Part shown: piece after piece, positions 924-1,355 of the stretch
Position numbering within the stretch: the stretch's first letter is position 1
Layout: each line of letters starts with the position of its first letter
Source: a virus
Length of the DNA stretch: 7,572 nt
Virus record (IMG/VR): IMGVR_UViG_3300015603_000089
Coordinates: 1-7,572 of that record
Direction: 5' to 3' (one strand)
Translations under genes and position numbers: made by a program
The notes under the pieces: model-generated
Told to the model about the DNA's origin: nothing
What the model saw: the letters and a program-made list of their open reading frames with translations, nothing else
Databases searched by the model: none

Positions 924-1355
924 ATGAACAAGCAAAACGGCTTCACATTGATTGAGTTAATGATCGTCGTGGCCATCATCGGCATATTGGCTGCGGTGGC
1001 TCTCCCCGCTTACTCTGACTATCAGACAAAGGCCAAACTAACCGAAGCTGTGAGCGTGTCTGCACCTGCTCGGCTGGCGGTGGCCTTGGCTTGTTCAAGC
1101 GGTGAGCTTTCTTCTACGTCTGATAACGCATCTCTCGATCTTGATGCGGCCGCGGCGTATGCGTCGCCAGTTGTTGACACGTTGACAGTTGCCGGGGTCG
1201 CTGCTCCTCTCTCTGCAACTATCACCATTTTGTTAAAAAAAGTCGGTAATTTGGCGGCGGGTGCTACGGTCATTTATACGGGCCTTTGCACCGGTGGTGG
1301 TGTGACTTGGGCGGTTTCAGGCACTGTCCCTGCAAAGCTGTTGCCTAAGGTTTAA
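924..1355 (+). CDS. Type IVa prepilin-like protein (class III signal peptide, N-methylation motif)
   Basis: The N-terminus is [44 protein letters not shown]. It has a 6-aa leader ending in Gly, Phe+1, Glu+5, a hydrophobic alpha1-N helix and the conserved (A/I)LPAY.DY segment of type IVa pilins. The full protein is 143 aa with two Cys (ALACSSG and GLCTGG) and a C-terminal [10 protein letters not shown] weak SD (tgggg, 914-918) lies upstream. Confidence 0.9.

Follow-up and report, generated by a model that had tools for sequence, protein, structure and literature searches.

For filamentous phages, type IV pili are known to serve as receptors, and the secretin of the pilus as their way out of the cell. 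What, then, could be the role of a type IV pilin gene carried by such a phage? We addressed this question with the IMG/VR virus record IMGVR_UViG_3300015603_000089, analysed over its whole stretch of 7,572 nt (hereafter the window, to whose numbering all coordinates refer). An earlier note, written from the sequence alone, had read a plus-strand gene at 924-1355 as a type IVa prepilin gene within the structural operon of a filamentous phage. This gene starts with ATG and encodes 143 amino acids (aa). Its codons 1-6 (924-941) specify the leader MNKQNG, cleavage after which leaves a mature protein that begins at Phe (942) and carries Glu at position +5, that is, a class III signal. The note had called this signal unambiguous, and profile searches bear out the assignment. 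The product scored 44.1 bits with the Pfam model N_methyl (PF07963; cut-off 21.2), 39.2 bits with Pilin (PF00114; cut-off 22), which covered residues 35-142, 37.8 bits with TIGR02532 (cut-off 16.3), and above the cut-off with the NCBIfam model IV_pilin_GFxxxE. Residues G6, F7 and E11 were invariant across an alignment of 88 pilin homologues, and the first 24 mature residues were those of the host consensus in an alignment with host pilins.

The mature protein of 137 aa was counted with the major pilins, a class of about 140-160 aa. Among proteins of solved structure, the best relative by sequence was Neisseria PilE (4e-13), and Dichelobacter FimA, Escherichia coli PpdD and Pseudomonas PilA were also retrieved. 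An AlphaFold2 model built with the 88 homologues, with a mean predicted local distance difference test (pLDDT) score of 91.6, consists of a helix at residues 9-59 and a four-stranded antiparallel sheet. The structural comparison with PilE and PilA proposed earlier returned these very folds: in a Foldseek search of the PDB, the top matches of the model were gonococcal and meningococcal PilE and the PAK pilin (probability 1.0, template modelling (TM) score 0.57-0.68; entries 1ay2, 2hi2, 5vxx and 1oqw). Two cysteines, Cys57 and Cys122, did not vary among the 21 phage and host homologues of one alignment; among the 88 homologues of the larger one, C122 remained invariant and C57 was conserved in at least 90% of the sequences. 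The pair links the end of helix 1 with strand 3 in position, a spacing unlike that of the canonical C-terminal disulfide loop. Models of type II secretion system (T2SS) pseudopilins matched residues 4-44 only and scored far below their cut-offs (GspG, 32.6 bits against 88.85; GspH, 37.8 bits against 80). By sequence and predicted fold, the product of 924-1355 is a full-length type IVa major prepilin.

The gene lies between two inovirus genes on the plus strand, as previously placed. Upstream, separated by 27 nt (897-923), is a gV-like gene for a single-stranded DNA (ssDNA)-binding protein (SSB; gene ssb at 564-896; phrog_2866, 5.4e-14). Downstream, beyond a spacer of 81 nt (1356-1436), is the gene for the major coat protein, Inovirus Coat B (1437-1637; PF05356, 9e-16; phrog_7106, 1e-21). 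Both gap lengths agree exactly with those given in the earlier note. Together with a Zot protein, a DUF2523 protein, a pIII-like protein and a rolling-circle replication (RCR) initiator (Rep) encoded on the same small circle, this gene content identifies the genome as that of an inovirus. A weak hairpin and T-tract had also been described 3' of the pilin gene, and this part of the description did not hold. A scan of the flanks, including the 27-nt gap and 1355-1437, called no promoter-like or terminator-like site, and the spacer has no significant structure, the fold of 1350-1440 being no better than that of shuffled sequence (z = -1.6). In other pilin-carrying phages, the gaps between ssb, pilin and coat genes shrink to 2-6 nt. 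The pilin gene is probably co-transcribed with the upstream ssb. Searches with Pfam, PHROG and NCBIfam profiles detected no prepilin peptidase, pilus ATPase, platform protein or secretin among the ORFs (open reading frames) of the window, as had been observed from the sequence. Since the phage has no such genes, PilD and the assembly machine would be supplied by the host. Taken as a whole, it is very probable that the gene encodes a genuine, functional, phage-borne major pilin that is handled by host machinery, and we regard it as a phage-resident copy of the host major type IVa pilin ("P-PilA").

A first alternative is that a host pilA was joined to phage DNA by misassembly, a concern raised earlier for the region 897-1436, or that the gene is a recent passenger without function. 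The gene is known from metagenomes alone, and no cultured phage with a pilin was found. However, bases 1-99 are identical to bases 7474-7572, a 99-nt terminal direct repeat that corresponds to the assembly overlap. The record therefore represents a complete circular genome of 7,473 nt, and the JGI contig Ga0071328_167405 represents that circle with a different start point. Terminal repeats indicate that three other pilin-carrying contigs are complete circles as well (L005, 141 nt; L054, 49 nt; L055, 31 nt). The composition of the pilin gene (GC 0.53; GC at third codon positions, GC3, 0.53; T at third positions, T3, 0.33) is like that of the other phage genes and unlike that of host pilA (GC3 0.59, T3 0.18). 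Moreover, the slot recurs. All nine close homologues whose context was examined (P0001, P0002, P0005, P0006, P0007, P0008, P0009, P0010 and P0013; 58-83% identity) are encoded in inovirus contigs, in the same order of ssb, pilin and Coat B genes, and in pilin contigs Coat B is followed by an ORF of about 107 aa, pIII, DUF2523 and Zot. The pilin occupies the same ssb-coat slot in the IMG/VR contigs L054 and L055, and probably in P0062. Overall, same-slot pilins were found in 22 JGI, ENA and Logan samples, counting identical copies and one probable case. Misassembly is excluded, because the genome is circular, a second contig gives another permutation of it, the codon composition is phage-like and the slot is the same in independent assemblies.

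Selection bears on the passenger half of this alternative. Pairwise dS values among phage pilins were all saturated (>1.3), which makes it impossible to date the capture with a synonymous-site clock, while dN ranged from 0.14 to 0.53 and dN/dS from 0.07 to 0.26. Two contigs with an identical pilin protein differed by six substitutions, all of them silent. The phage pilins are under purifying selection, and the protein has been conserved while dS reached saturation. Assembly, recurrence, composition and selection thus refute the artefact or passenger explanation, to which we assign next to no probability.

The distribution of constraint along the protein bears on a second alternative, in which the pilin is dominant-negative: an excess of it would jam PilD or the platform, abolish pili, free PilQ for phage extrusion and remove the receptor. 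The ssb and coat genes are the most strongly expressed genes of inoviruses, and the location of the pilin gene between them favours this explanation. There are also parallels. Neisseria cells carrying MDA-phi make either pili or phage, which exits via PilQ (PMC5526601), and truncated PilA-like proteins of Pseudomonas phages have been proposed to work in a dominant-negative manner (PMC12952977). A blocker, however, would need the N-terminal helix alone. This helix is indeed the most constrained part of the phage pilins, but the globular, C-terminal domain also remains below a dN/dS of 0.45 (0.08-0.42), and Glu+5 and the Cys pair are conserved with it. In addition, an alignment comparison showed that six positions alone separate phage pilins from functional host pilins; in the window pilin, phage-specific residues stand at positions 35, 54, 83, 95, 106 and 143. 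We consider a dominant-negative role improbable. The earlier suggestion that the pilin poisons the host pilus loses ground for the same reason, namely that the globular domain is under purifying selection.

To trace the origin of the gene, we compared it with cellular pilins. The nearest homologues are the PilA proteins of Rhodoferax, Comamonadaceae and Burkholderiaceae (57-61% identity), and homologues below about 61% identity are chromosomal pilins. Two of these (P0017 and P0022, both 60%) correspond to one syntenic chromosomal pilA locus; in P0017, pilA is flanked by genes for a GAF-MshEN-T2SSE ATPase and a PglL/Wzy_C O-oligosaccharyltransferase. The nearest Zot prophages, retrieved by Zot alignment from 185,579 species genomes, were those of Rhodoferax ferrireducens (66%), a Burkholderiaceae metagenome-assembled genome, Acidovorax and Paracidovorax. 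Because the nearest cellular pilins and the nearest Zot prophages point to the same bacteria, similarity suggests Comamonadaceae-type Burkholderiales as both host and gene donor, and the phage would be a small filamentous phage of freshwater Comamonadaceae-type bacteria.

In a neighbour-joining tree of 121 pilins, every phage-borne pilin fell into one clade of 13 tips. Bootstrap support was 80% for the core of nine phage pilins, and 32% and 24% for the wider clades. A single capture is the simplest reading of this tree, with a few captures as the alternative given the weak support of the wider clades. The pilin appears to have been captured long ago from a Comamonadaceae-type host and to be now an accessory cassette among related inoviruses. 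A separate observation from the 121-pilin alignment concerns the C-terminus, where Ser or Thr is found in 50 of 108 non-phage pilins but in only one of the 13 from phages. The last residue of the phage pilins is mostly Val, and they form one clade rather than independent observations. This difference hints, as a lead only, that phage pilins escape C-terminal (TfpO/PglL) glycosylation. In the host pilA locus L009, a PglL/Wzy_C O-oligosaccharyltransferase gene is located downstream of pilA, at 10001-12247.

Is the pilin part of the basic equipment of these phages? We searched for it in the fetched loci of related phages and prophages of Rhodoferax, Acidovorax and Burkholderiaceae, and found it in none of the 41 closest IMG/VR Zot relatives and none of the 80 prophage relatives (0 out of 121). 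These relatives share the same set of coat, 115-aa ORF (orf115), pIII, pVI and Zot genes, while a 39-aa ORF was detectable in some of them only. In the Rhodoferax prophage L224, the coat gene follows ssb after 35 nt, with no pilin gene between them. The existence of such relatives indicates that the pilin is dispensable for the basic phage body plan. The proposal that it is a moron-like insertion thus stands as far as its accessory nature is concerned, but neither a promoter or terminator of its own nor a deviant base composition was detected.

The same comparison weighs on a third alternative, which covers two earlier hypotheses, a virion tip component and a pseudopilin. According to it, the product would be a PilD-processed cap or tip subunit of the virion, or would form a short pseudopilus that opens the host secretin. 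The pilin sits in the slot that gVII and gIX occupy in Ff phages, a secretin gene is missing from the phage genome, and the pilin gene is probably co-expressed with virion genes. Nevertheless, the 121 relatives have the same virion genes and lack the pilin, ssb directly adjoins the coat gene in L224, and the pseudopilin models matched nothing beyond the N-terminal motif. Pilins are extracted by PilB and PilC, and Zot does not do so. Furthermore, the pilin follows three unrelated SSB families and is paired with divergent structural modules. A role in the virion or in egress is disfavoured by these data and seems still less probable than a dominant-negative one. Equally improbable is a coupling of export to the host pilus machine, in which a short fibre or a few subunits would prime or gate PilQ, or cap the virion, and a secretin-less inovirus would be extruded by a hybrid pilus/phage pathway; since relatives manage without the gene, this coupling is disfavoured too, although it is conceivable as an efficiency booster.

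Between phages that carry it, no other protein is as well conserved as the pilin: the window and L012 share 69% identity in the pilin, 31% in Zot and 24% in pIII. Pilin carriers belong to at least five Zot lineages, each with pilin-less nearest neighbours. The pilin tree conflicts with the Zot tree (L002 and L012 are 80% identical in the pilin and 38% in Zot, whereas L002 and L005 are 59% identical in both), indicating that pilins have moved between phage lineages. The slot was kept although its neighbours are non-homologous. Across the contigs compared (L002, L004, L005, L054, L218-L220 and L306), the pilin gene is preceded by SSB genes of three unrelated families (phrog_2866, phrog_8473 and phrog_4994/RstB-like), and it accompanies two Rep types. 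These results describe a long-resident cassette that is exchanged between inoviruses, in every case at the point where the replication module meets the structural one. The adsorption protein follows its own course. The pIII of the window is far more similar to those of the pilin-less L022, L025 and L034 (phmmer, 1e-115 to 1e-125), and over the N-terminus to that of L218 (73% identity), than to that of L214, the nearest relative by genome (41%). This mosaicism implies that receptor-binding modules shuffle independently of the pilin.

A functional, conserved and mobile pilin calls for a purpose, and we tentatively favour receptor conversion, which we hold as a working possibility. During virion production, the pilin would be transcribed alongside the two phage genes with the strongest expression. 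The prepilin would be inserted in the inner membrane, where host PilD would cleave and methylate it, and the host PilB/PilC platform would polymerise it into the host pilus, mixed with chromosomal PilA or replacing it. Such co-assembly is plausible, given an N-terminal helix that does not vary between the phage and host pilins. Phages that depend on the pilus, perhaps the progeny of the phage itself among them, could then adsorb less well to the producing cell because of the altered pilus surface. Pilus function would be retained, and the outcome would be receptor conversion or superinfection exclusion.

Two precedents are the reason for favouring receptor conversion. The first is P-FimU, encoded by a Pseudomonas prophage, which enters the pilus, leaves twitching intact and blocks phage adsorption (Sztanko et al., Cell Rep 2026, PMC12952977; bioRxiv 2024.03.29.587342). 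The same study lists untested PilA-like genes from Xylella prophages and from four groups of phages at NCBI, with about 50% identity to host PilA. Like P-FimU and P-PilA, the present gene is a phage-borne homologue of a structural subunit of the type IV pilus (T4P) without machinery of its own, and a pilin that is 57-61% identical to host PilA and forms a separate clade fits this type. The difference is that those genes belong to tailed phages, among which the minor pilin FimU alone was tested, and that the study is silent on filamentous phages; here, a major pilin is encoded inside the ssb-coat operon of an inovirus. The second precedent is the archaeal pleolipovirus SNJ2, whose PilA1 and PilA2 hijack the assembly machinery of the host and make up the dominant pili (Xiang et al., Cell Rep 2025, PMC12426801). 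These pilins are host-derived and dispensable for the viral cycle, and the authors propose that they replace the chromosomal pili. Both viruses carry pilins captured from a host. In SNJ2, however, the pilins are archaeal, the virus is unrelated and the phylogeny indicates multiple acquisitions, whereas the phage pilins group together (with the core clade alone well supported) and have apparently been exchanged between phages. With these recent experimental precedents, the suggestion in the earlier note that the pilin remodels the pilus and excludes superinfecting phages gains ground, in contrast to its poisoning variant.

SNJ2 also lends itself to a different explanation, lysogenic conversion for the benefit of the host. 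Here, the phage pilin would form or boost pili that improve adhesion, twitching, biofilm formation or DNA uptake by the infected cell, thereby aiding phage persistence, and the blocking of phages would not be the selected effect. The SNJ2 pilins, as the dominant filaments, promote biofilm formation and motility (PMC12426801). The present pilin is full-length, assembly-competent by sequence and under purifying selection, and its operon position suits high expression. On the other hand, the presumed hosts already own a chromosomal pilA, and the patchy occurrence of the gene among close relatives suggests a conflict-type gene rather than one of general benefit. We regard host benefit as the selected effect as rather unlikely, with a clearly better standing than a dominant-negative or virion role; it is compatible with receptor conversion, and the two are not mutually exclusive.

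T4P-dependent phages are known to modify the pilus of the infected cell. PfsE of Pf4, Tip of D3112 and Aqs1 of DMS3 are small inhibitors whose binding to PilC or PilB abolishes piliation (PMC11436027), and PfsE represents an inovirus case. The present gene differs from them in encoding a complete structural subunit, which would alter the pilus instead of abolishing it. A further phage for comparison is the Neisseria phage MDA-phi, which exits through the pilus secretin PilQ and shows an interplay with type IV pili (PMC5526601). It shares with the present phage a TspB-type adsorption protein and the lack of a secretin gene, and from these two traits we infer that the phage clade may use the type IV pilus and PilQ. 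To our knowledge, no pilin gene has been reported for MDA-phi, and none was found in the Neisseria prophage relatives retrieved by the Zot scan.

Several points weigh against receptor conversion. For this phage clade, T4P are a putative receptor, deduced from TspB-type relatives, of which MDA-phi is an example. Pilus tips, where minor pilins are located, are a frequent binding site of filamentous phages, and swapping the major pilin might not block tip-binding phages. Exclusion genes of prophages usually adjoin the repressor, and the pilin gene lies in the production operon, away from the repressor. Finally, pIII type and pilin type showed no co-variation, and most relatives lack the pilin gene.

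How novel is a pilin gene in such a genome? The earlier note, whose author knew of no characterised inovirus with a prepilin in this slot, overrated the novelty. Viruses with host-assembled type IV pilins became established in 2024-2026 (PMC12952977, PMC12426801), PHROGs already includes a "pilin" moron family, and Supplementary Table 5 of Roux et al. 2019 (PMC6813254) holds a family of three sequences, iPF_01657, labelled "Pilin" under the category "Other". This family probably represents the same kind of gene; it is given without context, phylogeny or interpretation, and the main text of that paper never mentions pili. A pilin-encoding filamentous phage had also been claimed in 1999 for VPI-phi and its TcpA in Vibrio cholerae, a claim later refuted (PMC3545932). 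VPI-phi, a pathogenicity island of 41 kb, lacks the morphogenesis genes of inoviruses and is no phage, whereas the present genomes are bona fide inoviruses of 6.5-7.5 kb with Zot, Coat B, DUF2523 and RCR Rep.

Searches for further cases were largely negative. Among 50,697 GenBank phage records, neither megablast with the whole window nor tblastn with the pilin, even at E = 5, gave a real match, although the low-complexity filter may hide N-terminal matches; the sole match was a mislabelled Salmonella contig, which was rejected. Foldseek against the viral structure library BFVD returned nothing at E <= 0.001, jackhmmer on the fetched loci found no further Zot homologues, and a single-protein pattern scan of IMG/VR, with overly specific patterns, gave no match. 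The 600 rows listed by an alignment-based scan of metagenome contigs were all distant pilins and did not help with gene context. A full-text literature search retrieved no paper on a pilin gene in an inovirus, and the exact phrase for phage-encoded pilins was also empty. As far as we found, no major-pilin gene had previously been described from bona fide inoviruses. Its distinctive features are the position within the operon, conservation in at least five lineages of phages and exchange among these lineages.

Other small IMG/VR contigs with a pilin gene turned out not to be inoviruses. They are fragments of tailed phages, recognised by T4-like clamp and clamp-loader genes or by an HK97-type capsid, portal and TerL. 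The T4-like contigs encode a full-length pilin homologue with 31-39% identity, located at 4554-4979 in L063, 2940-3365 in L081, 1282-1707 in L082, 1220-1732 in L102 and 4322-4765 in L104. In L063, Pfam searches identified the gp45 sliding-clamp gene, followed by the pilin gene, a short ORF and the gp44 clamp-loader gene. L081, L082 and L102 share this ORF layout, and L104 stops at the pilin. Besides the inovirus slot, the T4-like clamp region is a second phage site at which a pilin gene is conserved.

The presence of the main pilus subunit in a phage genome adds a third contact point between filamentous phages and type IV pili. If the pilin re-surfaces the pilus, the strategy of receptor replacement, demonstrated so far only for the minor pilin of a Pseudomonas tailed prophage and for an archaeal virus, would extend to ssDNA phages with a chronic, non-lytic life cycle. 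Few surface genes vary as much or are exchanged as often as those of major pilins, and a mobile virus of 6.5-7.5 kb in which the gene passes between phage lineages provides a concrete vehicle for the lateral movement of pilA alleles. The idea is directly testable, since the small genome has been assembled in full and the host has relatives that can be cultured (Rhodoferax and Acidovorax).

The rest of the plus strand completes the inovirus gene set. Two small genes for conserved membrane proteins, candidate minor virion proteins, follow the coat gene (1638-2101): a hydrophobic ORF of 39 aa (1638-1757) and an ORF of 115 aa with a C-terminal membrane segment (1754-2101). Most relatives have the 115-aa ORF and fewer have the 39-aa ORF, pilin-less relatives included. 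Both are candidates for minor coat proteins of the gVII/gIX type, sited after the coat gene instead of before it. Next come the pIII-like adsorption protein, mosaic between phages, with its TspB-type C-terminal domain (2138-3472; PF05616, 3.7e-6), the pVI-like minor coat protein with DUF2523 (3424-3765; Pfam) and the Zot/pI morphogenesis ATPase (3939-4979; Pfam and PHROG). The rolling-circle replication initiator is encoded at 5584-6507 (PF23343, phrog_3419). In the non-coding stretch of about 600 nt between Zot and Rep, two adjacent tandem arrays occupy 5191-5332, with about 10 copies of GTGTGA and about nine of CGTAACAA; they may be origin or iteron-like elements.

A serine recombinase of the resolvase family, a likely integrase, is encoded at 6591-7184 (plus strand; PF00239, 5e-39); it was also found in the Rhodoferax and Acidovorax prophage relatives, and the phage shows neither a tyrosine integrase nor a reliance on XerCD. 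A repressor-like DNA-binding protein is encoded on the minus strand at 7167-7562 (phrog_31301, 2.7e-25), divergently from the structural operon. The interval that separates this gene from the first plus-strand ORF contains, at 73-120, 2.1 copies of a 23-nt repeat unit with TTGCATA...TATGCAA palindromes. Because of this location, the repeats are likely operator sites.

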